Positions 1 to 35,437 of a DNA stretch of 64,000 nt are shown here, in pieces. Below the pieces are notes generated by a model. The model had not been told where the DNA came from. It made no database searches and saw only the letters and a program-made list of their open reading frames with translations. The translations under genes and the position numbers were made by a program. The number at the start of each line of letters is the position of its first letter. The stretch's first letter is position 1. Source of the DNA: an uncultured Patescibacteria group bacterium (GTDB lineage: Bacteria; Patescibacteriota; Minisyncoccia; Phycocordibacterales; UBA918); contig CAKUWT010000003.1 of NCBI GenBank assembly GCA_934699595.1, positions 10,130 to 74,129 of the forward strand. The letters are read 5' to 3'.

Positions 1-296
1 GAGGCCTTGCTGCTCGCCAAGCTGAAGCTACCGTCATCGACGGCGAAGCTCGAGCTGAAGCAGCTCGTAAGGTAGCAGCCGTGGCAAACGAGAGCCCAAT
101 AGGGGCAAACGTTATTACCCTGGAGGCCTACATGAAGGCAGTCCAGGCGGCGGCAGACGGGAAGAGTGCTAACATCATTCTCCCCGCAATCGGTCAAGGA
201 ATCGGGGCGGATCCTCTACAGTTGCTGCAACTGCAACAACTGCAAGAGCTCAACAAGAACGAGGAGGGAAAAAAGGATGTCGAAGATAACAACTAG
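1..296 (+). CDS. 3' end of a hypothetical protein; the ORF is open from the window edge, so the gene continues upstream
   Basis: Reading frame 3 is open from nt 3 to the TAG at 294-296. The track ORF 81..296 is only its tail. No recognisable motif. Confidence 0.35.
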   Translation, partial: GLAARQAEATVIDGEARAEAARKVAAVANESPIGANVITLEAYMKAVQAAADGKSANIILPAIGQGIGADPLQLLQLQQLQELNKNEEGKKDVEDNN

Positions 297-9648: not shown

Positions 9649-10752
9649 ATGACAGAAGAAAAAAGTAACTCCATCGGAGTAATGGATCAGCTTGTAGACG
9701 AGCTACCAGAGATCCCACGTGAGGGTCAGGTAATTGAGGGGGTTGTTTCTGCAATTGGTCGCGCCCGCGTTTATGTTGACCTGCCACCTTTCGGCACCGG
9801 TCTAATTTTTGGCCGCGAGTACTTAAATGCCCGCGACATTCTCCGAAAAGTTTCCGTTGGCGACTCTATTGGCGCAAAAATTGTCGAGTCATATAATGAA
9901 GATGGTTATATTGAACTATCTCTTAAGGAAGCTCGCCAAGCTCTAATTTGGTCTGACGCTGAGGAAGCTGCCAAGCGTGGCACCGTAATGTCTCTGGAAG
10001 TAAAAGAGGCTAATAAGGGTGGCTTAATTATTGAGTGGCAAGGTATTCAGGGATTCCTACCAGCCTCACAACTTTCTACTGACAACTACCCTCGTGTCAC
10101 CGACGGTGACAAAGATAAGATTCTTAGTGCCCTTAACGAGTTGGTCGGCAAGCATTTGTCAGTAGCAGTAATCACCGCAGATCAGAAAGAGCACAAACTG
10201 ATCTTCTCCGAAAAGAGCCTTCAGGAGAAAGAAGAAAAGGAAGAAAAAGTCGGCAAGTACGAAGTTGGTGACGTCTTGAGTGGTGAAGTTACTGGTGCTG
10301 TTGATTTTGGTATCTTTGTCAAAATCGAACAAGGGTTGGAAGGTCTGGTACATATTTCTGAGCTGGACTGGGGATTGGTGGATGATACCCGATCTTTGTA
10401 CAAGGTCGGAGATAAGGTAAAGGTAAAAGTTATTGAGGTAAAGGACGATAAGATTTCTCTTTCGATCAAACAATTGCGTGAAAATCCTTGGTCTGAAGCC
10501 GCAGCTAAGTACAAAAAGGATGAGTTAGTAGATGCAGTCGTCATCAAGTACAACAAACATGGCGCTCTAGCCTCTGTACAGGAGGGTGTGGCTGGCTTGG
10601 TACACATTTCTGAGTTCGCTAGTGAAGAAGTAATGAAGACTACTTTACAACTTGGTGGTGTCTATAAGTTTAAAATCACCCTCTTTGATCCTCAGGACCA
10701 AAAAATGACCCTGTCTTACAAAGACGCTCAAGAAGAAACTGTTGCTGGATAG
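9649..10752 (+). CDS. rpsA: 30S ribosomal protein S1 (four S1 domains, short CPR-type)
   Basis: Repeated S1 motifs: GQVIEGVV..VYVDL, VGDVLSGEVTGAVDFGIFVKI..GLVHISE, VGDKVKVKVIEV. Confidence 0.8.
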   Translation: MTEEKSNSIGVMDQLVDELPEIPREGQVIEGVVSAIGRARVYVDLPPFGTGLIFGREYLNARDILRKVSVGDSIGAKIVESYNEDGYIELSLKEARQALIWSDAEEAAKRGTVMSLEVKEANKGGLIIEWQGIQGFLPASQLSTDNYPRVTDGDKDKILSALNELVGKHLSVAVITADQKEHKLIFSEKSLQEKEEKEEKVGKYEVGDVLSGEVTGAVDFGIFVKIEQGLEGLVHISELDWGLVDDTRSLYKVGDKVKVKVIEVKDDKISLSIKQLRENPWSEAAAKYKKDELVDAVVIKYNKHGALASVQEGVAGLVHISEFASEEVMKTTLQLGGVYKFKITLFDPQDQKMTLSYKDAQEETVAG

Positions 10753-10769
10753 GATAGAAGGTGCTCGCT

Positions 10770-10831
10770 AGAGTTCCTGAAAATAAAGTCGCTGGCCCGT
10801 GCGGGTCAGCGACTTTATTTTCAGGAACTCT
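10770..10831. terminator. 25-bp perfect inverted repeat (agagttcctgaaaataaagtcgctg / cagcgactttattttcaggaactct) with 12-nt loop between convergent rpsA and pth
   Basis: Arms 10770-10794 and 10807-10831 are exact reverse complements (seen in sequence). Bidirectional terminator or recognition site. Confidence 0.55.
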
Positions 10832-10840
10832 TCAACCTCA

Positions 10841-11434
10841 CTACCCCTTCACATTAAACTTATTCATCGCCGCTGACGCTCCTTCCGTACAGATAGTTAT
10901 AATCACGGCTGCCACTCTTTCTGTCAACGACTCTACAACCTTCATCTCCTTAGCCGTGAAAGTCCCCAGCACAAACTTAGCCAGCCGTGCGCCGTCCGGT
11001 CGCACCGCCGCCCCCGTCTCAGGATGACTGCCAGCGATTCCTAACCGAATCCTCACAAACTCATTACTCCCCAGACTTCTAATAATAGAGGCAATCCCAT
11101 TATGCCCACCGTCGCCACGAGCCACCGAGACCTTCAGTTGCCCTAAAGGTAAATCTACCTCGTCCGCAATCACAATCAATTTACTAAAGTCACGCTTTGG
11201 GACAAACTTCGCCACCGCCCCACCACTCTCATTCATGAACGTGTCCGGAAAAAATAACTGCACCTCTTCCCAGCCACAGACACCTGTCGCGATTTGGCCA
11301 TGGTAGGTCCGTGAGGAGAAAAAATTTGTCATACCTAACTCAGCCCGCACTTTGTCCATCACCAACTGACCAATATTATGCCTGGTCTCACGATACTCCT
11401 TTCCTGGATTTCCCAAGGCTACTAAATAATACAT
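10841..11434 (-). CDS. pth: peptidyl-tRNA hydrolase
   Basis: MYYLVALGNPGKEYRETRHNIGQ at ATG 11432-11434. The track ORF is over-extended upstream to 11695. Confidence 0.9.
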   Translation of the reverse strand: MYYLVALGNPGKEYRETRHNIGQLVMDKVRAELGMTNFFSSRTYHGQIATGVCGWEEVQLFFPDTFMNESGGAVAKFVPKRDFSKLIVIADEVDLPLGQLKVSVARGDGGHNGIASIIRSLGSNEFVRIRLGIAGSHPETGAAVRPDGARLAKFVLGTFTAKEMKVVESLTERVAAVIITICTEGASAAMNKFNVKG

Positions 11435-11543
11435 ATTTTGTTTAACATTATTGTACAAGAATTTACTTAAAGAAAAAGTCAGCTGATAGAAAAACGGCGA
11501 CTGTTTGTTTTCTCTACCACTTTCATCTATAATAGGAGCACTT

Positions 11544-12188
11544 ATGTCTCTACCACCCATTATAGACAACTCTTCTGAACTCAGCGATGACAAAACCCTA
11601 ATCATCGCCAATCCTCCCAAGTCTTCCACAAACGGCTTCAAAGACCTGGTGCGCTTTGTCCTCTTGGCACTGGTAATCGTGCTCCCAATCCGCATATTTA
11701 TTGCTCAACCATTTATTGTTTCTGGAGCTTCTATGGAGGAGACTTTTCATGGTGGCGACTACTTAATTGTCGACCAGCTTAGTTACCGCCTCCGTGAGCC
11801 GACTCGTGGAGACGTCATTGTTTTTCACTACCCCAATGACCCCTCTAAGTTCTTTATCAAGCGTATTATCGGTCTTCCGGGTGAGAGGATTGATATTAAT
11901 AACCAGACTGTTACCGTTTACAACTCCACCCATACCGAAGGGCAAATCCTGACCGAAGACTATATCAATACCATGAACAAGCCAAACAATATTGACGTAA
12001 CCCTAACTAGTGACGAGTACTTCGTCATGGGTGATAACCGAGACCACAGCTCTGACTCTCGAGCCTGGGGACCACTGGAGAAGAAGTTTATTACCGGTCG
12101 CGCTCTTGTTAGGTTATTCCCACCGAAAAATTTTGACTACCTACCTGGCGCGGTCTCCGCTGTCGATATGCTTACTCAGAAACTCTAA
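11544..12188 (+). CDS. lepB: signal peptidase I
   Basis: GASMEETF (Ser box), FIKRIIGLPGERI, YFVMGDNRDHSSDSRAWG. ATG at 11544 after AGGAG. Confidence 0.85.
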   Translation: MSLPPIIDNSSELSDDKTLIIANPPKSSTNGFKDLVRFVLLALVIVLPIRIFIAQPFIVSGASMEETFHGGDYLIVDQLSYRLREPTRGDVIVFHYPNDPSKFFIKRIIGLPGERIDINNQTVTVYNSTHTEGQILTEDYINTMNKPNNIDVTLTSDEYFVMGDNRDHSSDSRAWGPLEKKFITGRALVRLFPPKNFDYLPGAVSAVDMLTQKL

Positions 12189-17892: not shown

Positions 17893-17951
17893 TAATTCCA
17901 TTTTTCAAGTTTTTCAAAAATCCAAGCAGGGATCTGTTGTGTGACCAGTAG

Positions 17952-17993
17952 AACCCATGGGCGATGTCTTTGACATCGCCCATGGGTTTTCTC
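17952..17993 (+). terminator. 17-bp stem hairpin (aacccatgggcgatgtc/gacatcgcccatgggtt) after trxB
   Basis: Perfect inverted repeat seen in sequence; only a weak T tract follows. Confidence 0.45.
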
Positions 17994-18188
17994 TCCTTCC
18001 TCCACAGTCAATAATTTCCTCTTTCCTAAACTGTTGACAAACTTGTGCACAACTCTGGAATTAGCTCGGTATAAGTGGTGAATAAGTTTGTTTACAGACA
18101 CTGCATAAGCTCAGGATGACTTGGGGAAACACCAGCCTTCCCCACGAAGATATCCTGATAAATCGGGCTTGGTTTTTCCCCCTTTCTT

Positions 18189-18197
18189 TGCTAAGAT
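18189..18197 (+). promoter_or_regulatory. extended -10 promoter (TGcTAAGAT) for tRNA-Glu
   Basis: TGnTAAGAT lies 12 nt before the tRNA 5' end; the same TGCTAAGAT occurs before tRNA-Ser. Confidence 0.4.
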
Positions 18198-18209
18198 AGC
18201 AGAGCAAAT

Positions 18210-18282
18210 GGCCCTATCGTCTAGTGGTTAGGACGCAAGGTTTTCATCCTTGAAGCCGGAGTTCGATTCTCCGTAGGGTCAC
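18210..18282 (+). tRNA. tRNA-Glu (anticodon UUC)
   Basis: Cloverleaf read by eye: acceptor ggcccta/tagggtc, anticodon stem caagg/ccttg with loop ttTTCat, T-arm cggagTTCGATTctccg. Confidence 0.85.
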
Positions 18283-18408
18283 AGAATCGAGTGCTAGTTC
18301 GAGCACTCGACAAGGGTAACGAAAGGAGTAGAACCTTGTTTCTGCTCCTTTCGTGTATATAGATATAAAAATGTACAACGAAGTATAAAGTTGTAAAATT
18401 GATAAAGT

Positions 18409-21111
18409 ATGGCTAGTCTCTTAGAAAAAATTGATGTAATCAATGAAAAAATAAACAAGAACATCGCTATCCTCTCAAATAATGAGCGTGGTCTTGCGTC
18501 TCAGGCAATCCTGGACGATCTCCGTGATCTAGTTGAACACACTGCTGTTTTAATTCACGCTGGTCAAGAAGCAGAAATTGGTTTTGATCTAATCAAAGAA
18601 AGTCTTGAACATATACGTGGATTCTCCAAATACAGTTTTCTATACAAGCTACATAGTAGATTGAATTTAGCTATTTCACATTATGAGCCTAATGAAAGTG
18701 ATGCTGAAATGCTAATGCTAGGCTACATGCATAATTTATTTCTTATAAAGAAATTTTATCTTAAAAATTATAATCATCTCATTTTACAAGATTTACGAAA
18801 TTATCCGTTAAATCTAGATCCTGGCTTATCAGATTATTACAAAGCTATAATTGATAAAATAAAAACTTCTAATTATGAAGAAGTAGACAAAGCTGATTTT
18901 TATATTGACCGAGTAAAACCACTGATTATCGACAACGAACTGTATTATGAGGTAACTTTTCGACCCGCAACAAATAATTTTGCAAAGTTTAATAAAACGG
19001 TGGCATATACAAAGCGTAAAATTACAACAAACTACGCACTTAAGCTGACTTTAGCAAAAACTCAAATAGACGTATTTGATACAAAATCACGTGTTCTCAT
19101 TATATTAGACTTTGAGATCTCAATTCGTCCGTGTGAAATACAACACCTGGGAATGATTTTTGATAGAGGTTTTACGTTCAATAGTAGGACGAAAGAATAT
19201 CAAAATCTGATGAGTGCTTTAAAGGTTAGTCAGTTAACATTGCTTGAGGTAGTGACTCTAAATGAGACCAGATTTGAAAAATTTAAAAAATATTTAAGCG
19301 ATGACGCGCGCTCAGTAAAAATATTAGAGGTTCTTGAAAAATGTAGACAAATAATCATAGAAGATTTAAATGGCTCTAATATTTTGAGGTATCTTCTGGC
19401 TAATCTAAATAATGCTGTTCTGAAGAAACAGCTAAACACCGAGAAGTGCAATATACTTTCGGGTATGTTTTTAAAGAATGGCTGTCGAGTATTCGACGAC
19501 ATGCCTTTCTGTTCATCTCTAAATGGACATAATCCAACGAAGCTTTCTTTAATTGATTGTATCTCCCCAGAAAATAGAAAACATGAATTCTTGGCAAGAC
19601 ATATTAATCAAAACGCAAGAACAAAAAAGATTCTCTATACTCCTATTGAAGAGGTGCAGAAAGTTTATAATGTTGATCAAGAGATCGAGGCTTTTAATTC
19701 AAAAATTTGGGAAGGTCACAAGCCCGCTCGTGAATTGAGAACTTACTCCAAGTATATATACAATTATGGAGCCGAGAAAGATTGTCATGACATATTTACT
19801 AAAATCTTAAGTCTTACCGATTCGGGCATTGAAGATTACCAAACACTCATTGATCTGTGGCTTGACCAACAAAGTGACGATGTCATTGATTCGGATCAGA
19901 AGAGACAAGTTCTAAGAGAATTATTTGCAGAAACACACGTTGCGCTCATTTATGGATCGGCGGGTACTGGGAAAACCAAGATGATTGAATATATTGATAA
20001 TGTATTTCAAGCTGAAAATAAAATATTTCTCTCTAACACAAATGCCTCAGTAAACAATCTCAGGGCCCGAATTGGAGAAAGTGATAAGCATACTTTCTCT
20101 ACGGTTTCTTCATATCTACATAATATTGATGAATATGGTGACTCAGAAATACTTTTTATTGATGAATGCAGTACTGTAAGTAATGCAGATTTGTTACAAA
20201 TTCTCAAGCATAAAAAGTTTGAGAAAATTGTCTTAGTGGGAGATGTTTACCAAATAGAATCAATAGATTTTGGAAACTGGTTTTATCTTTGCAAAAACCT
20301 GCTCCCGAAACATTGCATTTTCGAATTAGATGATACACACAGGACTAAAAAAGAAGACTTGAAACTATATTGGTCTGCTGTTCGAAATTCGGATGATAAT
20401 GTACGCGAAATTGCTTCTAGGGGTCATTTCACCAAACCAGTTGATCAATTCATAAAAAACTATGAGGATAAAGAGGATCAGATTGTACTATGTTTAAACT
20501 ATGATGGTTTATATGGAATCAACAATCTAAATAGACTTTTGCAGGAAAAAAATCAAAATACTGCAGTGGACTGGGGTGTTCATAGTTACAAGGTTGGAGA
20601 CCCCATTATTTTTACCGAATCGTCGAGATTTTTTCCCGTTTTATATAACAACTTAAAGGGGCGCATAGCCAAAATTGACGCTAACGGCGATGAAATAACA
20701 TTTGAAATAGTAATTTCTTATTCACCAAATCCGTTTGATGCCCATCGTTGCGGAGTTGAGTTGTTGGAGAACCTGCCAGACGGTAAATCAAAAATTAAAT
20801 TCTCAGTAAATAAACTAGAAAATGTTGATGAGGATTTAGATGATTCTGATAGATTAGTCCCATTTCAGGTTTCGTATGCTACATCTATTCACAAAGCTCA
20901 AGGTCTTGAGTATAAATCTGTAAAACTTGTTTTTGTTGATGAAGTACAAGATATGGTTACTCATAGTATATTTTATACGGCTATAACCAGAGCCAAAGAG
21001 GAACTAGAAATTTATTGGTCTCCTGAAACTGCAGATAAAGTCTATGAGAAAATTAAAACTAATCTAAATAAGCAGGACTCTTATATTTTTAAGAACAAGT
21101 TTAGCTTATAA
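18409..21111 (+). CDS. 900-aa protein: ~500-aa N-terminal domain of unknown function fused to a C-terminal SF1 (RecD/Dda/Pif1-like) helicase
   Basis: Walker A LIYGSAGTGKTKM, Walker B FIDECSTV, LVGDVYQIESID, UvrD_C-like SYATSIHKAQGLEYKSVKLVFVDE..TAITRAKEELEIYW. The gene is markedly AT-rich. Confidence 0.7.
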   Translation: MASLLEKIDVINEKINKNIAILSNNERGLASQAILDDLRDLVEHTAVLIHAGQEAEIGFDLIKESLEHIRGFSKYSFLYKLHSRLNLAISHYEPNESDAEMLMLGYMHNLFLIKKFYLKNYNHLILQDLRNYPLNLDPGLSDYYKAIIDKIKTSNYEEVDKADFYIDRVKPLIIDNELYYEVTFRPATNNFAKFNKTVAYTKRKITTNYALKLTLAKTQIDVFDTKSRVLIILDFEISIRPCEIQHLGMIFDRGFTFNSRTKEYQNLMSALKVSQLTLLEVVTLNETRFEKFKKYLSDDARSVKILEVLEKCRQIIIEDLNGSNILRYLLANLNNAVLKKQLNTEKCNILSGMFLKNGCRVFDDMPFCSSLNGHNPTKLSLIDCISPENRKHEFLARHINQNARTKKILYTPIEEVQKVYNVDQEIEAFNSKIWEGHKPARELRTYSKYIYNYGAEKDCHDIFTKILSLTDSGIEDYQTLIDLWLDQQSDDVIDSDQKRQVLRELFAETHVALIYGSAGTGKTKMIEYIDNVFQAENKIFLSNTNASVNNLRARIGESDKHTFSTVSSYLHNIDEYGDSEILFIDECSTVSNADLLQILKHKKFEKIVLVGDVYQIESIDFGNWFYLCKNLLPKHCIFELDDTHRTKKEDLKLYWSAVRNSDDNVREIASRGHFTKPVDQFIKNYEDKEDQIVLCLNYDGLYGINNLNRLLQEKNQNTAVDWGVHSYKVGDPIIFTESSRFFPVLYNNLKGRIAKIDANGDEITFEIVISYSPNPFDAHRCGVELLENLPDGKSKIKFSVNKLENVDEDLDDSDRLVPFQVSYATSIHKAQGLEYKSVKLVFVDEVQDMVTHSIFYTAITRAKEELEIYWSPETADKVYEKIKTNLNKQDSYIFKNKFSL

Positions 21112-21133
21112 CTAAATTCAATTAGCTATTTTC

Positions 21134-22417
21134 TTATTTCTGAGCTGAAATAATCTTGTTTTTTAGAATTAAATTATTCTTAACACAATTCAGAACTGAT
21201 CTTTTCTCCAAAACTGTCCCGTCTCTCAAAACAAATTTGAGATAATTTCTCAGATCTACCTTCTGTATTTCTGCAGTGTTTTCTTTGCCCAGAAACATTG
21301 CTTGAAGTCTCTTGAATTTCTTGATCTCAAGATTTAACTTTTCGGTAAGTTGCATTTCATTAAGATCAAGTGTGCTTGCCATTTTCTGAAACTCTTTGAG
21401 GAGATCGTTTTCATTTATTGCTGGGTTTTTGCACTTTCTATCCTTTGATTTGGCGCAGCGATAATATACATGTCTGTTCACTCCTCCATTTAGCAACTTC
21501 TTAAACTTCTCATCAGCGGTAATTCCCGATCCGCAAACACCGCACTTCATCATTCGAGTAAAAGCAAATTCCTTGCCTTGTGACTTTATAACCTGTGACT
21601 TGATTGAGTTTCTCGTCTCATCGAATAATTCCTTAGTAATCAGTGGCGTATGTTTGCCCTCATACCAAATACCAGCACCTTGCGGAAACTCAAATTTTCC
21701 ATAATAAAACGTATTGTTAATGATCTTGAATACATTCCCGATACTTAAGTGATAACCACGCAAGGTACGGAAGTTTAAATCGTATTTTAGCCATGCGTGT
21801 ACCTTTGAAGCACTCCATTTATCATAGGCAATTTTCTCAAAGATTTGCCGTATAACATCTGCCCGTTCTGGATCAATTTCTACCTCGCATTTGGCTAGTC
21901 GCCCATCAACTTTTCTATAGCCTGTCGGTGGTTGGGCTGGCCACAATCCCATCTCGCACCTTGTTCTCATGCCACGCTTCACATTGATACTTTTGTTATC
22001 GTTCTCTAGCTTTGCTTGAGAACAGAGAATCATAAGGAGAAACTTATCGCTTGGTGAATTAGTGAAGTTCTGCCCGAACGTTTTAATGGTAATGAGCTTC
22101 TTTTGATCCATGCGGTCAACGAGCTTACCCAAATCTCCAGCATTTCGTGATAATCGATCAGGTGCCCACGTGATAATGGCGTTAAAAATACCATTATCAA
22201 TGTCTCGTACAATCTCTTCAAATACTGGTCTTTGACCTGATTCTTTAGCGGAGTGTGACTCTCTCCTAATTTCAACGATAGTAAGCTTTTCTCGCTCGGC
22301 TATTTGTGTCATTTCTTTGATCTGTGAATCAATCGAAAGAGCTTGTTTTTCGTCACCTTCGGTCGACTTACGAGCGTATAAACAATAACGATATTCGCTT
22401 GGTAATACTTCTGTCAT
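21134..22417 (-). CDS. large serine recombinase (resolvase domain + recombinase domain + zinc ribbon)
   Basis: N-terminal YARKSTEGDEKQALSIDSQ (catalytic Ser region), DRLSRN motif, C-terminal CGVCG..YYRC zinc ribbon; 427 aa. Confidence 0.85.
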   Translation of the reverse strand: MTEVLPSEYRYCLYARKSTEGDEKQALSIDSQIKEMTQIAEREKLTIVEIRRESHSAKESGQRPVFEEIVRDIDNGIFNAIITWAPDRLSRNAGDLGKLVDRMDQKKLITIKTFGQNFTNSPSDKFLLMILCSQAKLENDNKSINVKRGMRTRCEMGLWPAQPPTGYRKVDGRLAKCEVEIDPERADVIRQIFEKIAYDKWSASKVHAWLKYDLNFRTLRGYHLSIGNVFKIINNTFYYGKFEFPQGAGIWYEGKHTPLITKELFDETRNSIKSQVIKSQGKEFAFTRMMKCGVCGSGITADEKFKKLLNGGVNRHVYYRCAKSKDRKCKNPAINENDLLKEFQKMASTLDLNEMQLTEKLNLEIKKFKRLQAMFLGKENTAEIQKVDLRNYLKFVLRDGTVLEKRSVLNCVKNNLILKNKIISAQK

Positions 22418-22439
22418 GTATTAATTGATGACAGAACCA

Positions 22440-22467
22440 CAAACCCTGCATAGCTATGCAGGGTTTG
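22440..22467. other. 11-bp-stem hairpin caaaccctgca tagcta tgcagggtttg between the recombinase start and the HAD gene end
   Basis: Perfect inverted repeat seen in sequence. Could be a terminator or a recombination site. Confidence 0.3.
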
Positions 22468-22485
22468 AAAAACGTCACATACTCG

Positions 22486-23127
22486 CTATAAATCTAGCAG
22501 AGTCATGAGTTCCGAGATGTTTTTTATTCTGTAATCAGCGTCCGCGGTAACTTCTGGAAAATGCCTATTTTGAAAATGAACGGTTTTTAAACCTGCAGCT
22601 TGAGCCGCAGCCACCCCTCTTGGAGAGTCCTCTACAGCTATTATTTGTTCTGATGGAATGTTTGATTCTTGTATAGCTTTCAGGTAACAATCAGGAGATG
22701 GTTTGGGGTCGGTGTACTTTTCTCTAGTGATAATCCAATCAAGTGACTCAAGTAAACCGCTTTTTTCGTACACAGCTGTAAAAACATCCTGGCTTGCATT
22801 TGTAACAATTCCTATCTTGAATTTCTTACTCAACTCAACAAGTTCACTAACGGTACTTGGCGCAACAGATAGTCCAGTCTTTACTTTTTGAATAAATCTT
22901 CGGTTGCGCTCATTTTTAAAGCCCGCGATGTCTTCAATATGGTTTTGTTTCAAAAAACCAGCTGACCCAAGATTGCTAAGAAACGAGTATCTAATGTAAT
23001 CATCACGTGTGTGTTCAATGCCGTACTGCCGGATAAGCTCGGAGTTGATTTCAAAATAGATATTGTCAGTGTCTGCAACCACTCCATCGCTATCAAACAA
23101 AATACACTTAATATCCATTCTTTTCAT
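22486..23127 (-). CDS. HAD-family hydrolase (beta-phosphoglucomutase-like)
   Basis: ILFDSDGVVADT motif I, GIVTNAS motif, ATG at 23125-23127 (MKRMDIKC...). The track start is a GTG further upstream. Confidence 0.7.
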   Translation of the reverse strand: MKRMDIKCILFDSDGVVADTDNIYFEINSELIRQYGIEHTRDDYIRYSFLSNLGSAGFLKQNHIEDIAGFKNERNRRFIQKVKTGLSVAPSTVSELVELSKKFKIGIVTNASQDVFTAVYEKSGLLESLDWIITREKYTDPKPSPDCYLKAIQESNIPSEQIIAVEDSPRGVAAAQAAGLKTVHFQNRHFPEVTADADYRIKNISELMTLLDL

Positions 23128-23186
23128 GATACACAAAAGTCCTAGATTGACCAGAACATAATATAAGTTATTATTCAACACATATT

Positions 23187-23801
23187 ATGAAAAAAACTGT
23201 CGTACTAATAGAAGGTGGAACAACATTTGAGACTTACGATGGCTACATATCATTTTTGCACTCAATGCCCATTAGTGTTGAATATCTTGAAAAACAAACA
23301 TGGAGAGATTCTCTCCAGTCTGATCTTGGCGAGACTTTTAAAGTAGTGAGATTGCAGATGCCAAACAAGATCAATGCCAAATATGAAGAATGGAAAATTT
23401 ACTTTCACAGATATATAGAAATATTGGGAGACGATCTTATTTTGCTTGGACATTCTCTTGGCGCTACTTTTCTAGTGAAGTTTTTGGCTGAGGAAACCAT
23501 TAAAAACACCATCTCCCGAGTGATACTGGTGGCAGTTCCTTTCGGTGAGAAAAGGACGGGACCGAGTTTAGGTGATTTTACTTTTGAATGCTCAACAAAT
23601 TTTGAAGCAGTTAACTCTGATCTCAAGATCACACTGTTTGCAAGTGACAACGATAAAATGATCACTAAGGATGATGTAGAAAAGTACCAGAAAGTAATAA
23701 AAAATCTAGAAGTCAAAACACTACCTGACCGCGGTCATTTCAGTCAAGGCGAATTTCCTGAACTGATCTCATGTATCAAAAGAGAAGACGTTGAAATATA
23801 G
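23187..23801 (+). CDS. alpha/beta-hydrolase, serine hydrolase (RBBP9/YdeN-like)
   Basis: LLGHSLGA nucleophile elbow, C-terminal PDRGHFS; 204 aa. Confidence 0.6.
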   Translation: MKKTVVLIEGGTTFETYDGYISFLHSMPISVEYLEKQTWRDSLQSDLGETFKVVRLQMPNKINAKYEEWKIYFHRYIEILGDDLILLGHSLGATFLVKFLAEETIKNTISRVILVAVPFGEKRTGPSLGDFTFECSTNFEAVNSDLKITLFASDNDKMITKDDVEKYQKVIKNLEVKTLPDRGHFSQGEFPELISCIKREDVEI

Positions 23802-23889
23802 ACAAATCAGATAATAAGTTGTATTGTACTGAATGAAAAATCGTACCTCATGTGGGTACGATTTGGTCTTTGACATCAGGAAATCCTAA

Positions 23890-24924
<1,035 letters not shown>

Positions 24925-24935
24925 GGAGACGTAGA

Positions 24936-26027
24936 ATGTCCGAGTTTGTTCGCATCGCCACCATGGCGATGAAAGCAATGCTCGGAGATCATGCTGAACT
25001 CGAACTCGTTTTGCTTTCTTCGCCAGGCAGCTCTGGTGCGAGAGTGTCTATCTTTAGGCACTCTCGCACTGAAAAACTGTTTGCAGTGAAGTGCGCAAAT
25101 GAGTCGCGTGTTTCACTGAAGAATGAAATAGCAAGAAGAGATTACCTGAAGCCTTACTTTGAGGGACATTTACCTCAAGTGCTGATGTTTCAGGTGATAG
25201 ATGGGTACGAAGTGATGGTCTCTGAGTGTAGAGGTTTGAACACCCTGCATCAACTCATAGTTCAATCAGAATTGCCACATGAGTATATGTTGAATATCTG
25301 GGAAGATATCTCAGCAAAGCTATTAGGTATGTGGCAGAAGACACGTTCTGACTATCAACCCGAACTGAACCCTCGAAACTTTTCTGCTCGAATGCAGAGG
25401 ATCAAAGACGGTGTTCAGGAAATCGAGTTGTTAGGGACGTCACTTGAGCAGCTCTGGGAACTGCCTATAAAGGTAAATGGTAGAAAGTACTCCAGTCTGG
25501 CAGACACTTTCCATGAGGTCCAAAACATTGAGACTCCTGACTTTGGAGTTTTGTGTCACGGCGACCCTCAGCCAAGCAATTTTATTGTAGACCGGAATGG
25601 TCACTGGAATTGTATTGATTGGGAGTGGGCTGGAGGACCTCACGATTGGCGCATGATGATGGCGCATTTGCACGGCTGGTGGACAACAAGATGTCTTGCG
25701 CTTACCAAAGAACCTTCAGTTAAGGTGAGCGAAGAAGTGCTGGAATTAGAGTATGACGCTTTTGTTCCAGCACACCTGTTTAGGTATCAAAATACCTCGA
25801 TCGGCTTGCTCAAAAGTATGGCTCCAACGGTCAAAGAAAGGGTTCGTGCGATTAATGGTATCAATCGTTATCTCGCGGCCCTTTACTTGGGTGAAGTTCG
25901 ATTTTTGCCTCTCTGGGGCAGAAATGCATTTACTGTGCCCATGTTGGCTCAGGCAGTCATGGCTGTGTCAAACGAGAACGACGCCTATGGCGGTCCCTTC
26001 AAAATCTCTCTGAACGAGGAGGAATAA
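24936..26027 (+). CDS. APH/choline-kinase-fold phosphotransferase
   Basis: LCHGDPQPSNFIV (HGD..N catalytic loop), IDWEWAG (DxE), lysine in FAVKC. ATG 12 nt after the trpS stop, with GGAG RBS. Confidence 0.6.
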   Translation: MSEFVRIATMAMKAMLGDHAELELVLLSSPGSSGARVSIFRHSRTEKLFAVKCANESRVSLKNEIARRDYLKPYFEGHLPQVLMFQVIDGYEVMVSECRGLNTLHQLIVQSELPHEYMLNIWEDISAKLLGMWQKTRSDYQPELNPRNFSARMQRIKDGVQEIELLGTSLEQLWELPIKVNGRKYSSLADTFHEVQNIETPDFGVLCHGDPQPSNFIVDRNGHWNCIDWEWAGGPHDWRMMMAHLHGWWTTRCLALTKEPSVKVSEEVLELEYDAFVPAHLFRYQNTSIGLLKSMAPTVKERVRAINGINRYLAALYLGEVRFLPLWGRNAFTVPMLAQAVMAVSNENDAYGGPFKISLNEEE

Positions 26028-26029
26028 AC

Positions 26030-26836
26030 ATGTATCGAGAACTCATGAGTGATGAGTCGTACAGGTTTGTCTTGAGAGCGACACGCTCGCTCTCAAGACA
26101 CACTGTCGACCAAGGTAAAGACGGGGGCTATTGGGTGAATTATGGAAGCTTCGTAATCAATACCCAACAGCCCAGTAGTGACATTGACTTGCTCTATGTA
26201 CACCAAAACTCTGAGCCAGTCAGCAGAATGTCTGCTTCTTTCGAGGGACATCCTGTCACTATCTATCAACTCAGTGAAAACGATCTTCTAAATGACGGAG
26301 AAATAGCAAAGTTTGGTGGATATTTCAGCGGCAAGCTGTTAAATCCATTTGTGATCCTCTCAGAAGATCATCGACATAACGAAGTCGCACTAAGATCTGC
26401 AGGGTCATTCATTGGCCCTCACACTGTTCACCAAACAGCAGAAGTACATACACCTGCGAGGGTCGTTAAAGACACTGTCTTGGCGCGGTTAAAACTGTGT
26501 CCGTGGTACGACAGCTACTTTTTGCGCTATTACACACACCCAGGTTTTGCAATAATCTGGGAAGTAATGGTGAATGCTGTCTGTCTTTCACTTGAAACAT
26601 CAGGTCACATCCGGATTGATAAGAGTGGGTACAGGTATGTTCGTGTTTATTCTGAACAAGAATTGCACGAAAGAAGTGTGGCTGCCATTGCTCGATTTTG
26701 GAGTCTGGGAAGCTGCTTACACAGTAGTATGCCAGACTTTCCAGACTTCTACATGAAGAAGGCAAGGCAACATGTTGAAACCAATCAATTGAAGGGTCGT
26801 CTGGAGGAAATGATGAAATTCCTTCATTCCCCATAA
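26030..26836 (+). CDS. Pol-beta-superfamily nucleotidyltransferase-like protein
   Basis: YGSFVINTQQPSSDIDLLYV (GS..DxD NTase motif). Start is 3 nt after the previous stop, RBS GGAGG. Confidence 0.5.
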   Translation: MYRELMSDESYRFVLRATRSLSRHTVDQGKDGGYWVNYGSFVINTQQPSSDIDLLYVHQNSEPVSRMSASFEGHPVTIYQLSENDLLNDGEIAKFGGYFSGKLLNPFVILSEDHRHNEVALRSAGSFIGPHTVHQTAEVHTPARVVKDTVLARLKLCPWYDSYFLRYYTHPGFAIIWEVMVNAVCLSLETSGHIRIDKSGYRYVRVYSEQELHERSVAAIARFWSLGSCLHSSMPDFPDFYMKKARQHVETNQLKGRLEEMMKFLHSP

Positions 26837-26846
26837 GGAGGCTACA

Positions 26847-27890
26847 ATGCAACCAGACTATGCCCGTCAGTGGGCACTTGAGGCTGAGAGAATCTACGCA
26901 AGCAAAGTTGCGCAGTTCGCTCTTGAAACAGAGACGGCATTGAGGGAGACTGAGTTCACAAATACTTGGGACTCCCTCCTCGGTGTTGGTGTGTGGGCTG
27001 TACAGAATCACTTCCAGCTTTGCACAGCAATCAAAAACAAAAAAACCTTTGCTGTGTTAGTTGGTATGAGGCCTGGTGCCACGTTTCATCTTGGACATCT
27101 GACCATGATGAACGAGCTGCAATGGTATGTGCAAAAAGGCGGAGTGCCTTTGATTGTTTATGCTGGTTTCGAAGCTAGCAAAAAGCAAGAAGACTTGGAT
27201 CTTACGCACGAGTTCGAGGGCTTCAAGAAGCTGTATCGACGCTTTACAGGTGACGATCTGACTTCTGACACTATCGCTATCTCAGATCTGGAAGATCCTG
27301 CTCTCTTGAGACTGGAACGACAGATAGAGGAAGTTGTAACAGCCAGAAAGATACTCCAACTTTACGGCTGGGATGAGTCGACATCGGTTGCAAAGTTGCG
27401 TGTCCCTTGCAAGACAGCTGCAGCTTTTCTTCTGTCCTCCGTGCTGATGCCCGGAGTACCCAGTGTCATTTTATCGGACATCAATCAAGTGACTCACTTC
27501 GAAGTCGCAAAAATTGCAAGCCGATCTCTTGGGTTAAGACTTCCTACGGTTTCGTATCGCCACCTGCTGCAAAGTCTGGAAGGACCAGAAGGTAGAATGA
27601 GCGTTAAAAACCCAAAGTCTCTATTGTTGCTAGACGATACACCCGAGGTGGTCGGCAACAAGCTCAAAAGATGCTTCTCTGGTGGAAAGCTTACCGCCGA
27701 AGAACAGAGAGAAAGCGGTGGCAATCCTGATGTGTGTTCTTTCTTCAAAGTCGCAAACGTTACGCTTCCTAGAGAAGAATCGTTTGCAATACATAAATCT
27801 TGTAGAGACGGCTCTGTATTGTGTGGTGAGTGTAAGAAGCTGCACATTCCAGAAATTGCCGCAAGATTCCAAAACTTGGAGCCCGACTGA
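26847..27890 (+). CDS. divergent TrpRS-like class I aaRS paralog
   Basis: MRPGATFHLGHL (HIGH-like), EGRMSVKNPKSLLLLDDTPEVVGNKLKR aligns to the TrpRS KMSKS..LLD.PE..KKI region, but KMSKS is altered to RMSVK. RBS AAGGAGG. Confidence 0.6.
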   Translation: MQPDYARQWALEAERIYASKVAQFALETETALRETEFTNTWDSLLGVGVWAVQNHFQLCTAIKNKKTFAVLVGMRPGATFHLGHLTMMNELQWYVQKGGVPLIVYAGFEASKKQEDLDLTHEFEGFKKLYRRFTGDDLTSDTIAISDLEDPALLRLERQIEEVVTARKILQLYGWDESTSVAKLRVPCKTAAAFLLSSVLMPGVPSVILSDINQVTHFEVAKIASRSLGLRLPTVSYRHLLQSLEGPEGRMSVKNPKSLLLLDDTPEVVGNKLKRCFSGGKLTAEEQRESGGNPDVCSFFKVANVTLPREESFAIHKSCRDGSVLCGECKKLHIPEIAARFQNLEPD

Positions 27891-27944: not shown

Positions 27945-28010
27945 CACAAAGTCACGTGACCATGTCACAAATATTTTTGACAAAAAGTGTCACTTTTGTC
28001 ACTTTTTGGA
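27945..28010. promoter_or_regulatory. cluster of GTCAC/GTGAC palindromes (GTCACGTGAC; AAAAGTGTCACTTTT; GTCACTTTTT)
   Basis: Perfect palindromes seen in sequence; a further TCACTAAAAAGTGA at ~28394-28407 lies just upstream of the 28430 ORF. Confidence 0.3.
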
Positions 28011-28429
28011 TCTCTCGAGAAGGGTCGAAACAGAAATCAGTCGAGTAGTCAAAAAAGCCTTACAGGTCAATGAAATCATTTGGTTCCATCACGATTCGGC
28101 TCACCAAAATGAGGTCGCGAATTTTGGTGAGCCTAAGTGAGCAAAAACTGATGCTGACGACAGACAAACAGAATATACTGCCAAGCGGTGTGGAAGGTGA
28201 CATCTGGGCCGACATCCTCGGTGTGGCGGTCGTTAACAGCTTTACTCGGTCTATTCTGCTGATCAGAAACTACTAGAGAAGAATTTTTCACAGTCGGCAT
28301 TTTAACATCAAAAACAGTCTTTGTAAATATTTATCACAAGCTAAGTGACTCGCCACTGAAAAATCTCGGACAATACCGGTATGCAAATCACTAGAGTTTG
28401 TCACTAAAAAGTGATATTCTGAAATTAAG

Positions 28430-34358: not shown

Positions 34359-35315
34359 ATGAGTATGGAAAAATTCAATCATAGTTATCAGCCAGAAACC
34401 CCTCTAAATCTTGAGGTGACAGATTATGAAGACGAGCCTTTTTACCCACTATTACAAAAACTACCCAGGTCTCTGGCCCTAAAACATATTGCTCATATTG
34501 AGAATAATAGTCTCAGTGAAGATGAAACTATTATCTATTTAGAGAAGATACTGGCTAGTCGTCACGAAGCGACGACCAGCTCAGAAATTAGCGACGTTAA
34601 TTTACAGGAGATATTCAAAAATAACCCTGAACTATTAGCTGAGGTAATTAACTCCCTAGAAACTAGTGTTTTTAACAATCCCGATAATTACCTTGGTACT
34701 GGCATGACAGCCAAAGTTAAACATTACAATTTAACTGACCCTGAGAATACCACTACCATTCCTATGGCAATTAAATATGTAATCACCCCTACAGCAAAGA
34801 CTCTGACCGCCGAACAAGAACATGACGTTATCAAAGAGGTTGAGAGAATGAAAACTATTGAAGATGCTCAACTAAAAAACCCACGTCGTTCTAGGTATTT
34901 ACGCGTACCACATCCATATCTACACCACTCCAATGAGAAGTTGCAACTTTACAGTATGGAGCATATTGATGGAGCAAATCTTTACCAACTTACCAACGGC
35001 GGTTTGACTCAAGAATTCAAACAGACCCTCCGCGAATCTCGCTTGGCCGAGGTTAGCATGGAAGAAATGGATGGCTATGTAGAACGTTTTTTTACCACCA
35101 TGCACGAGTATTGTCTTCACGGCGATATAAAACCAGCCAACCTCATGGTAAATAGTGATGGTGTCCTATACGTAATTGACTTTGGGCAGTCAATTTCACC
35201 CCAGAATATTCCCAAGGGAGCTGAAGAGCAGTTTGAAAATCTTAAAGAAGATGAAATTAAGGAAGCTAAATTATGTATCCGACGCTTACTGCGGCTGGTT
35301 TTTAGCGATGACTAA
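34359..35315 (+). CDS. eukaryotic-like Ser/Thr protein-kinase-fold protein
   Basis: G-loop LGTGMTAKV, lysine region MAIKYV, catalytic loop HGDIKPANLMV, DFGQS. Confidence 0.6.
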   Translation: MSMEKFNHSYQPETPLNLEVTDYEDEPFYPLLQKLPRSLALKHIAHIENNSLSEDETIIYLEKILASRHEATTSSEISDVNLQEIFKNNPELLAEVINSLETSVFNNPDNYLGTGMTAKVKHYNLTDPENTTTIPMAIKYVITPTAKTLTAEQEHDVIKEVERMKTIEDAQLKNPRRSRYLRVPHPYLHHSNEKLQLYSMEHIDGANLYQLTNGGLTQEFKQTLRESRLAEVSMEEMDGYVERFFTTMHEYCLHGDIKPANLMVNSDGVLYVIDFGQSISPQNIPKGAEEQFENLKEDEIKEAKLCIRRLLRLVFSDD

Positions 35316-35361: not shown

Positions 35362-35437
35362 GACCGATTAGCTCAGCTGGTAGAGCGCTACATTGACATT
35401 GTAGAGGTCACAAGTTCAAGTCTTGTATCGGTCACCA
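35362..35437 (+). tRNA. tRNA-Val (anticodon GAC), CCA encoded
   Basis: Acceptor gaccgat/atcggtc, anticodon stem ctaca/tgtag with loop ttGACat, T-arm acaagTTCAAGTcttgt, 3' acca. Confidence 0.9.

Follow-up and report, generated by a model that had tools for sequence, protein, structure and literature searches.

We analyzed a 64-kb stretch of DNA from an uncultured Patescibacteria group bacterium (contig CAKUWT010000003.1; the whole stretch is called the window here), and in it an AT-rich segment directly 3' of a tRNA-Glu gene that carries a 900-amino-acid (aa) helicase gene and, converging on it, the gene of a large serine recombinase (LSR). Coordinates without a label are those of the window, and L003 to L186 are labels of comparison loci. 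The segment and its left flank contain the following features.

18210-18282, plus strand: tRNA-Glu gene (anticodon UUC; ARAGORN, and Rfam tRNA at 64 bits), the left flank and probable insertion target, with the junction sequence TCACAG
18283-18314, no strand assigned: hairpin 1, AGAATCGAGTGCTAGTTCGAGCACTCGACAAGGGTA, the conserved 30-nt terminus of the LSR unit, which may serve as a recombination site
18319-18354, no strand assigned: hairpin 2, the first feature of the cargo cassette, with a 15-bp stem and without a U-tract
18409-21111, plus strand: 900-aa gene of the PDC-S53 family (PADLOC PDLC05035), the cargo gene, encoding a candidate single-gene anti-phage protein
21134-22417, minus strand: LSR gene, 427 aa (Pfam Resolvase, Recombinase, and Zn_ribbon_recom)
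22419-22488, no strand assigned: conserved region upstream of the LSR gene, which includes the palindrome AAACCCTGCATAGCTATGCAGGGTTT at 22442-22467
22486-23181, minus strand: HAD-family phosphatase gene (HAD_2 at 1.7e-28)
23187-23801, plus strand: PF06821 Ser_hydrolase gene (Ser_hydrolase at 4e-12)

All of these parts lie where the original prediction, made from the sequence alone, had placed them. The helicase and LSR open reading frames (ORFs) are convergent, with 22 nt between their stop codons, and trpS starts at 23902. Both hairpins had been given 9-bp stems, which is correct for hairpin 1 (stem at 18287-18310, -14.3 kcal/mol, z score of -4.4, with 0 of 200 shuffled sequences equally stable), but the stem of hairpin 2 has 15 bp (-23.0 kcal/mol, z score of -7.8). 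The palindrome upstream of the LSR gene (22440-22467) folds with a 12-bp stem (-19.3 kcal/mol, z score of -5.8), and an Rfam scan of positions 17900 to 24000 found no match besides the tRNA. The GC contents of the helicase, LSR, HAD, and Ser_hydrolase genes are 0.336, 0.390, 0.385, and 0.373, respectively. All four values are below the minimum (0.399) of the remaining 39 window ORFs of at least 150 aa (mean of 0.460, standard deviation of 0.025), with the HAD gene 3 standard deviations under the host mean. The segment has the marks of a tRNA-associated island, since it adjoins the 3' end of a tRNA gene, deviates in composition, and encodes a recombinase, and a conserved terminus follows the tRNA; the placement of an island directly 3' of tRNA-Glu is upheld by these findings.

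The 900-aa protein matches the PADLOC model PDLC05035 (PDC-S53) with an E value of 0 and 1049 bits, with residues 1 to 898 aligned to profile positions 1 to 894 of 900. Judged by its sequence, it is a member of PDC-S53, and the family, being already catalogued, is not new. There is no sequence-level difference between PADLOC PDC-S53 and the window protein, and the two are alike in their ~900-aa architecture, in being encoded by a solitary gene, and in having frequent type I restriction-modification (RM) neighbors. The 145 PDCs were predicted by Payne et al. from embedding in BREX, DISARM, or type I RM loci, and those authors themselves call them untested candidates (10.1101/2024.01.29.577857).

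Relatives of the helicase are present in at least 587 species genomes from most bacterial phyla, among them Patescibacteria, Bacteroidota, Bacillota, Actinomycetota, Pseudomonadota, Campylobacterota, Spirochaetota, Synergistota, Thermotogota, Elusimicrobiota, Planctomycetota, and Melainabacteria, and in one Nanoarchaeota metagenome-assembled genome. The 65 full-length homologues are 35 to 96% identical, and nearly all have a length of ~900 aa. Full-length copies are found in only 2 of 50,697 phage records and 5 of 72,556 plasmid records; in both phages, the gene is part of an accessory block on the opposite strand, with early/replication genes on one side of it and methylase, restriction, and recombinase genes on the other. 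The helicase gene is under purifying selection, with a dN/dS of 0.059 compared to the copy at L166.

To describe its neighbors, ORFs were called and clustered at 80 helicase loci from most phyla. The most frequent neighbor families are serine recombinases (13 loci), HsdR (12), HsdM (10), and HsdS (9), followed by ParB-N6_N4 methylases (8), tyrosine integrases (5), and TnpV (4). Thus, no family occurs in more than 13 of the 80 loci, and the genes directly up- and downstream differ in size and strand. From its genomic contexts, the PDC-S53 helicase appears to be a single-gene system without an obligate partner. Two possible partners were rejected: a gene of 417 to 436 aa at L168, L170, and L174, which was seen again at just 3 of 80 other loci, and a 278-aa gene upstream of the helicase in the two phages, which recurs nowhere else. 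The former lies 31 nt upstream of the helicase gene (L168 5701-6969, L170 5716-6969, and L174 5659-6969), and its product has several CxxC pairs and no Pfam match. Relatives of this CxxC protein flank the helicase in L005 and L011 and are encoded 6 kb away in L019, and there is none in the window.

The protein divides into the four regions listed below.

18409-18873, plus strand: HEPN-like helical bundle, residues 1-155, with H91 (S-H-Y) invariant at the helix 3/4 junction
18874-19119, plus strand: five-stranded OB-like barrel, residues 156-237, with invariant Y165, E181, K193, and Y209
19120-19878, plus strand: alpha/beta region with winged-helix-like modules, residues 238-490, with invariant E243, G322, Y328, N335, Q341, H374, and N430
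19879-21108, plus strand: SF1B (RecD/RecD2/Dda/Pif1-type) helicase core, residues 491-900 (Pfam, NCBIfam, and PDB sequence matches)

The earlier reading of the last ~400 aa as an SF1 RecD/Dda/Pif1-like helicase agrees with our analysis. Residues 494 to 873 match AAA_30 (7.6e-20), Viral_helicase1, AAA_19, and UvrD_C_2 (7e-11) in Pfam, and the core matches RecD, RecD2, Pif1, and Dda among PDB sequences. The core motifs are Walker A GSAGTGKT (516-523), Walker B DECS (585-588), SIHKAQGLE (826-834), and YTAITRA (856-862). Invariant helicase columns include K522, D585, E586, Q615, R645, H828, K829, Q831, and R861, and all SF1B motifs plus 21 N-terminal residues are invariant across the family alignment. 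We therefore consider the protein a predicted SF1B-type helicase, for which family membership would imply a 5'-3' polarity. Its C-terminal 410 residues share all SF1B motifs with RecD2, Dda, and Pif1 and match their structures by sequence; in contrast, its 490-aa N-terminal region is unrelated to theirs, and its scores are far below the equivalog cut-offs.

It could be argued that the gene encodes an ordinary chromosomal RecD2-like repair helicase that is AT-rich by chance, since relatives are named "ATP-dependent RecD-like DNA helicase" and the NCBIfam RecD2 model gives a match at 7e-31. However, this match reaches 107 bits, compared to a cut-off of 500 bits, and covers residues 420 to 877 only. 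In addition, the family is patchy across phyla with variable neighbors, related genomes lack the gene in the corresponding slot, and a 93%-identical copy is present in an unrelated context (L166), all of which makes a housekeeping role very improbable.

The LSR has the three domains of its class (PF00239 at 2.6e-20, PF07508 at 3.3e-11, and PF13408 at 1.1e-8), a catalytic-serine motif that reads YARKS18T in the translation, and the same length as its relatives. It matches the PHROG 95 integrase at 1e-64, and the nearest NCBIfam model is CcrB, under its cut-off. In line with the original prediction, this is a recombinase of the kind associated with mobile elements and not a routine chromosomal resolvase. 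We found 7960 related proteins at an E value of ≤1e-80. The best 120 of these are 78 to 88% identical to the window LSR and ~426 aa long, and the named ones belong to Paceibacterota or Nomurabacteria. Judged by the named relatives of both its LSR and its helicase, the organism probably belongs to the Patescibacteria.

We compared the genomic context of five of the closest LSR relatives and of a truncated cluster-mate with that of the window LSR. The loci share a frame that, in window orientation, consists of a tRNA or tRNA-like 3' end, the motif GCTrGTTCGAGCACTCGA (contained in hairpin 1), a variable stretch, and the LSR stop codon. In L166, L180, L181, L175, L177, and L184-186, the motif is likewise found on the cargo side that is distal to the LSR. 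The left flank is tRNA-Glu in the window, L166, L180, and L181, tRNA-Arg in L185 and L186, and a non-tRNA sequence in L184, and the TCACAG junction precedes the motif in the window, L166, and L184-186. The presence of the same terminus after three types of left flank, all ending in TCACAG, points to site-specific insertion of the LSR frame.

A second conserved element lies upstream of the LSR gene. Here, ~70 nt before the LSR start have 80 to 100% nucleotide identity to L175, L179, L180, L003, L168, L170, and L174, which exceeds the ~65% identity of the LSR coding sequences in the distant elements (L168, L170, L174, and L003). In L179 and L003, homology ends at ~22488, at the HAD stop codon. 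This conserved region (22419-22488) could be a promoter/operator or a recombination site. Positions 18286-18351 and 22440-22467 had been put forward as places to look for recombinase attachment (att) sites; hairpin 1 and the palindrome, which falls within the best-conserved sequence upstream of the LSR gene, are indeed conserved cis elements, but no crossover point is definable from the two elements (18283-18314 and 22419-22488). A search for att sites found no tRNA-derived direct repeat, and no repeat of ≥80% identity over 16 to 24 nt links 18261-18420 to 21100-21200, 22400-22500, or 23700-23905.

During this analysis, we also observed a conserved noncoding element of ~140 nt at window positions 27985-28130 (plus strand), which begins AAAAAGTGTCACTTTTGTCACTTTTT and runs to GGTTCCATCACGATTCGGCTCACCA, with a finish like a tRNA 3' end. 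Copies are present in L083 (~4356), L175 (two copies, 15166 and 1018, both minus), L177 (1418, minus), L181 (378, minus), and L184-186 (5386, minus), and just past the helicase stop codon in L168, L170, L003, and L038. The element is not in Rfam, and no consensus structure emerged from RNAalifold (-1.5 kcal/mol). The hairpin 1 motif, which follows tRNA-Glu in the window, comes directly after this element in L175, L177, and L181. LSR elements may use the ~140-nt element as a landing site, or it may form their other terminus.

We then compared what lies between the terminus and the LSR stop codon (the slot) in loci whose LSRs are 82 to 88% identical to that of the window.

Window slot, 18315-21133: one AT-rich PDC-S53 gene
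L175 slot: type III RM genes and a DUF4238 protein gene
L177/L178 slot: AbiU-like AIPR protein gene and type I RM genes
L179 slot: type III RM genes
L180 slot: D12 methylase, HNH_2, and T5orf172 genes
L181-183 slot: type II restriction endonuclease, Ppl-like ATPase, and EcoRI-like methylase genes
L184-186 slot: ~85 nt, with a terminator hairpin only

L180 and L181-183 share the chromosomal neighborhood of the window, with trxB in both; ftsZ is also present in L180 (77% aa identity for FtsZ), and tRNA-Glu is present in L180 and L181. On the evidence of these sequences, the helicase is exchangeable cargo of a slot that in relatives holds RM or abortive infection (Abi) genes or nothing. Since the close LSR relatives carry such genes or an empty slot, the LSR unit exists without the helicase. 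An empty-site comparison had been proposed earlier. The slot itself is empty in L184-186 and differently filled in L180 and L181, but among the loci compared we found no relative without the entire LSR frame at the trxB-tRNA-Glu site. Searching by trpS, relatives at 77 to 78% identity keep the trpS-orf363 order, with no synteny upstream, and searching by trxB, the closest TrxB relative is 71% identical.

The helicase cassette is also found elsewhere. In L166 and L167, the helicase protein is 96% identical, and window positions 18208 to 21186 are shared at 93% nucleotide identity between flanks that are unrelated on both sides. The segment shared with L166 takes in tRNA-Glu, both hairpins, the helicase gene, and, after the 22-nt spacer, the final 53 nt of the LSR ORF. 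The tRNA body in L166 is ~80% identical to that of the window, with compensatory stem changes, and the pairing of hairpin 2, which is absent from all other loci fetched, is kept in L166 by compensatory substitutions at two base pairs (C-G to T-A and G-C to A-T). By sequence comparison, the most plausible reading of L166 is a second insertion, in a different genome and after another tRNA-Glu gene, from which the LSR was apparently later deleted. We rejected a crossover inside the LSR gene as the cause of the break at window position 21186 and take it for a deletion endpoint instead, because the alignment of the LSR proteins extends to their final residue in every element and a sharp break is seen in L166 alone. 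The cassette is judged mobile from these alignments. Its occurrence after another tRNA-Glu gene and the different or missing contents of the sibling slots agree with the assignment of the helicase as cargo in the original prediction.

As a side observation, L172 and L173 are a third case of a cassette downstream of tRNA-Glu. Here, tRNA-Glu(CUC) is ~580 nt upstream of a 76%-identical helicase gene, there is no LSR, and a small XRE-type helix-turn-helix gene ends 5 nt before the helicase start codon (L172 3771-4414 and L173 55-297).

The next-closest helicases, at 81 to 83% identity, are those of L168, L170, and L174, where a ~9.7-kb element has the helicase gene at one end and the gene of a 57%-identical LSR at the opposite end, with a ParB-methylase gene and the 417- to 436-aa gene between them. 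The flanking sequences diverge at the LSR stop codon and soon after the helicase gene. Because the helicase is found both in the frame shared by the window and L166 and in the elements at L168, L170, and L174, Patescibacteria LSR elements carry it repeatedly as cargo, though not always in the same arrangement. The window is not a circular permutation of the 9.7-kb type of element, which we tried as an explanation, since ~100 nt that are conserved after the helicase gene in those loci are absent here. In L168 (2023-2150) and L170 (1545-1666), the LSR start codon is preceded, at a distance of ~160 nt, by a LOOT RNA (RF03000; 86 to 96 bits, gathering threshold of 46), which by Rfam is absent from the window. 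The L174 element is bracketed by two serine recombinase genes, since its helicase stop codon is followed after 140 nt by a second one (9846-11552), whose longer product of 568 aa has 30% identity to the window LSR.

The association with recombinases raises the alternative that the protein is the element's own helicase, acting in replication, mobilization, or as a recombination accessory. LSR homologues are within 6 kb of the helicase gene in six loci of the Patescibacteria type (L003, L019, L038, L042, L044, and L079) and are also present in L168, L170, and L174. SF1B domains occur in relaxases, and the protein has a TraA_Ti match at 1e-16, which is far under the cut-off of that model; PHROG 325, "Dda-like helicase," spans residues 7 to 884. 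However, most of the 80 helicase loci are without a recombinase, the close relatives of the LSR have RM or Abi genes or nothing in place of the helicase, and full-length copies are almost absent from plasmids and phages. Neither Pfam nor structure-based comparison found a relaxase, primase, or initiator domain in the protein. The original prediction had left open whether the gene is a replication helicase or a defense gene. We favor defense, since a replication role fits poorly with slots that are empty or differently filled, and we consider a helicase serving its own element improbable.

A different question is what moves the cassettes. Instead of the LSR, the mover could be homologous recombination at a hotspot, with cassettes swapped between conserved flanks (the tRNA and terminus on one side and the LSR gene on the other) and an LSR that is long resident or decaying. 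Conserved sequence does bound the exchanged segments on both sides, the search for att repeats was negative, the LSR gene has a frameshift in L180 and is cut down to its last 53 nt in L166, and LSRs of 78 to 88% identity are extremely common, occurring also alone among housekeeping genes (L184-186). Set against this, the same terminus follows tRNA-Glu, tRNA-Arg, and non-tRNA flanks, all ending in TCACAG, the LSR of the window has its full length, the catalytic-serine motif, and all three domains, and the flanks of L168, L170, and L174 change exactly at the LSR stop codon. We regard exchange by homologous recombination as a substantial possibility that falls somewhat short of an even chance.

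Recombinases that edge a variable cargo region with defense systems are likewise found in the P2/P4 defense hotspots, which lie next to integrases (PMC9122126). The three-domain build of the window LSR is also that of SCCmec Ccr, TnpX of Tn4451, TndX of Tn5397, and the integrases of serine-integrase prophages. Compared to these, the window LSR is short (427 aa) and lies beside a tRNA 3' end, a location more typical of tyrosine integrases. It also differs from known LSR elements in that its cargo directly adjoins the recombinase gene at its 3' end and its frame is also found without cargo.

The left end of the island is well defined, at 18283, and the LSR frame reaches to ~22488. The HAD and Ser_hydrolase genes beyond it are compositionally foreign, as the original prediction had noted in assigning both hydrolases to the island, and they are possible members of it by this low GC content. 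No homologue of the HAD gene was found in any other LSR or helicase locus compared. PF06821 genes are present near the helicase in L042 (38% identity) and ~2 kb from the LSR in L185 and L186. A divergence from L083, a locus with an 87.5%-identical trpS relative, at window position 23794 was dropped as a candidate boundary because it adjoins an IS-like repeat present at both contig ends. In L083, positions 2-70 (minus strand) and 9717-9785 (plus strand) have the same 23-codon start of an ORF, MAKTIQEERWRWLRPIINKEMRL, in inverted orientation; apparently, an IS-like element present in several copies interrupted the assembly right beside the trpS promoter.

Residues 1 to 490 of the helicase protein had been described as a region without recognizable motifs and perhaps a novel domain. 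We also found no match for them in Pfam, PDB sequences, or NCBIfam, but they do not form one novel domain, and instead model as three recognizable folds. A profile of this region finds 1212 representative clusters, 475 of them at an E value of ≤1e-30, and the complete proteins among the best 150 of these clusters are ~900 aa long. Since it is found essentially only in proteins of ~900 aa, this region travels only with the PDC-S53 helicase. AlphaFold modeled residues 1 to 490 with a pLDDT of 87.5 and a pTM of 0.84, and residues 238 to 490 alone with a pLDDT of 92.4. In these models, the N-terminal region resembles a HEPN-like bundle, an OB-like barrel, and winged helices. The modeled barrel is a five-stranded closed beta-barrel resembling those of SSB or RPA. 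In a Foldseek search against PDB, the OB resemblance had a probability of 0.9 to 0.99 with weak E values, and the N-terminal models had nothing at an E value of ≤0.001 and no HEPN match.

The assignment of the first region is tentative. In the model, His91 is in the loop that joins the third and fourth long helices, which we take to be the site where HEPN domains carry their Rx4-6H catalytic motif, and it is invariant in 30 sequences that are 35 to 96% identical to the window protein. However, the canonical Arg of Rx4-6H is not conserved, with Q or N at position -5 and no conserved Arg at -4 to -6. None of the HEPN Pfam families matched any of 18 family members at an E value of ≤1, and there was no PDB sequence match either. 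HEPN families that have only the His and lack the Arg have been described, as have independent fusions of HEPN domains to SF-I helicases (PMC3710099). With the evidence from sequence, fold, and motif thus mixed, we call this domain HEPN-like and do not class it as a HEPN RNase.

These observations bear on whether the bundle is an enzyme at all. In one version of a defense role, it would be a non-enzymatic dimerization or sensor module and the motor itself the effector, stripping phage replication or recombination proteins or unwinding phage intermediates without killing the cell. The missing Arg (Q/N at -5) and the absence of HEPN matches by sequence or Foldseek would fit a non-catalytic bundle, as would the fact that the recognized N-terminal folds (OB and winged helix) are binding modules. 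Compared to the L166 copy, the bundle also has a higher dN/dS (0.167) than the winged-helix part (0.052) and the helicase part (0.035), where the values are lowest. Against this version, His91 is invariant where the catalytic His of HEPN domains would lie, and His-only HEPN families are known (PMC3710099). We consider a motor-only mechanism with a non-catalytic bundle a serious rival, although less likely than not.

A literature search on HEPN plus helicase defense proteins found analogues only. The giant MTES_1575-type HEPN-SF1 fusions have, like the window protein, an N-terminal HEPN-type bundle and an SF1 helicase in one polypeptide, and they likewise stand alone without a modification gene (PMC3710099). 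They differ in adding transglutaminase, Vsr nuclease, and wHTH domains and an active Rx4-6H motif (PMC3710099), whereas in the window protein no nuclease domain was recognized and the Arg is missing. The PADLOC models for Hhe did not match the 900-aa protein at an E value of ≤0.01; Hhe of Gao et al. 2020 is, we presume, the MTES_1575-type protein. DARNA (PD-T7-3) is a HEPN RNase activated by single-stranded DNA (ssDNA) (10.64898/2026.02.22.705581). It has 456 aa, a canonical R117x4H122 motif, and a Pds5-like C-terminal domain, forms dodecamers, lacks a helicase (10.64898/2026.02.22.705581), and has no sequence relationship to the window protein. As DARNA demonstrates, a HEPN RNase switched on by ssDNA is a feasible design (10.64898/2026.02.22.705581).

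Our favored explanation, which we hold to be probable, is that the 900-aa gene is an anti-phage gene carried as exchangeable cargo on an LSR unit beside tRNA-Glu. The segment would then be the loaded form of a Patescibacteria LSR unit, made of the terminus, the LSR gene, and its conserved upstream region, with the helicase gene in the slot. Family membership, architecture, selection, distribution, and the exchange of cargo at the slot are shown by the data. The slot evidence is independent of the original guilt-by-embedding prediction for PDC-S53, because the helicase occupies the slot of RM and Abi genes in sister genomes.

Several findings weigh against this explanation. PDC-S53 is a prediction-only candidate that is not mentioned in the papers or supplementary tables searched, and no nuclease fold was recognized anywhere in the 900-aa protein. 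For the island, no att core or flanking repeat was found, and on the right its conserved frame was traced to ~22488. In L168, L170, and L174, the helicase lies opposite the LSR, behind a 417- to 436-aa gene that is absent here.

We infer the anti-phage activity, its trigger and effector step, and catalysis of the exchange by the LSR along the following lines. The OB-like barrel and winged helices, if modeled correctly, would probably bind nucleic acid and, with the SF1B motor, load the protein on phage ssDNA or replication intermediates. ATP-driven 5'-3' translocation could then dismantle or stall phage replication directly; alternatively, translocation could switch on the HEPN-like domain with its invariant His91, so that RNA is cut and the infection aborted. 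In its exchange between genomes, the cargo would travel with the LSR frame or adjacent to it. Within a defense role, we slightly favor sensing of ssDNA or replication intermediates by the modeled OB and winged-helix parts, coupled to the SF1B motor. A bolder version, which we think unlikely as a whole, would make the LSR frame a dedicated cassette-holding platform, a serine-recombinase analogue of an integron or hotspot that captures or exchanges whole defense systems right at the 3' end of the LSR gene in very small genomes, and at the same time make PDC-S53 a new immune helicase that reads phage ssDNA through its OB and winged-helix parts and fires a His-only HEPN variant.

Elsewhere in the window, the ORF with the lowest GC content outside the island (34359-35315; GC of 0.399 and GC3 of 0.368) lies beside tRNA-Val (35362-35437), and it may be a second small insertion. 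Downstream of the island (23902-27890), trpS is followed by two ORFs without a Pfam match (363 and 268 aa) and then by a second, divergent TrpRS/TyrRS-like gene of 347 aa with a faint tRNA-synt_1b match. In L184-186, a gene for an AspRS/AsnRS-type synthetase adjoins the LSR. The presence of aminoacyl-tRNA synthetase genes beside these LSR units may not be coincidental.

In the papers searched, we did not find the domain reading (HEPN-like, OB-like, winged helix, and SF1B) or the Patescibacteria LSR context reported for PDC-S53. If the gene gives no phage protection, the finding is a routine island. Otherwise, its value lies in natural cargo-swap evidence and a domain-level hypothesis for PDC-S53, whose predicted layout, with one invariant His, an OB-like barrel, winged helices, and an SF1B motor, allows direct tests with point mutants. 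Patescibacteria have ultra-small genomes and little-studied immunity, and they may trade single defense genes at tRNA-linked recombinase sites.

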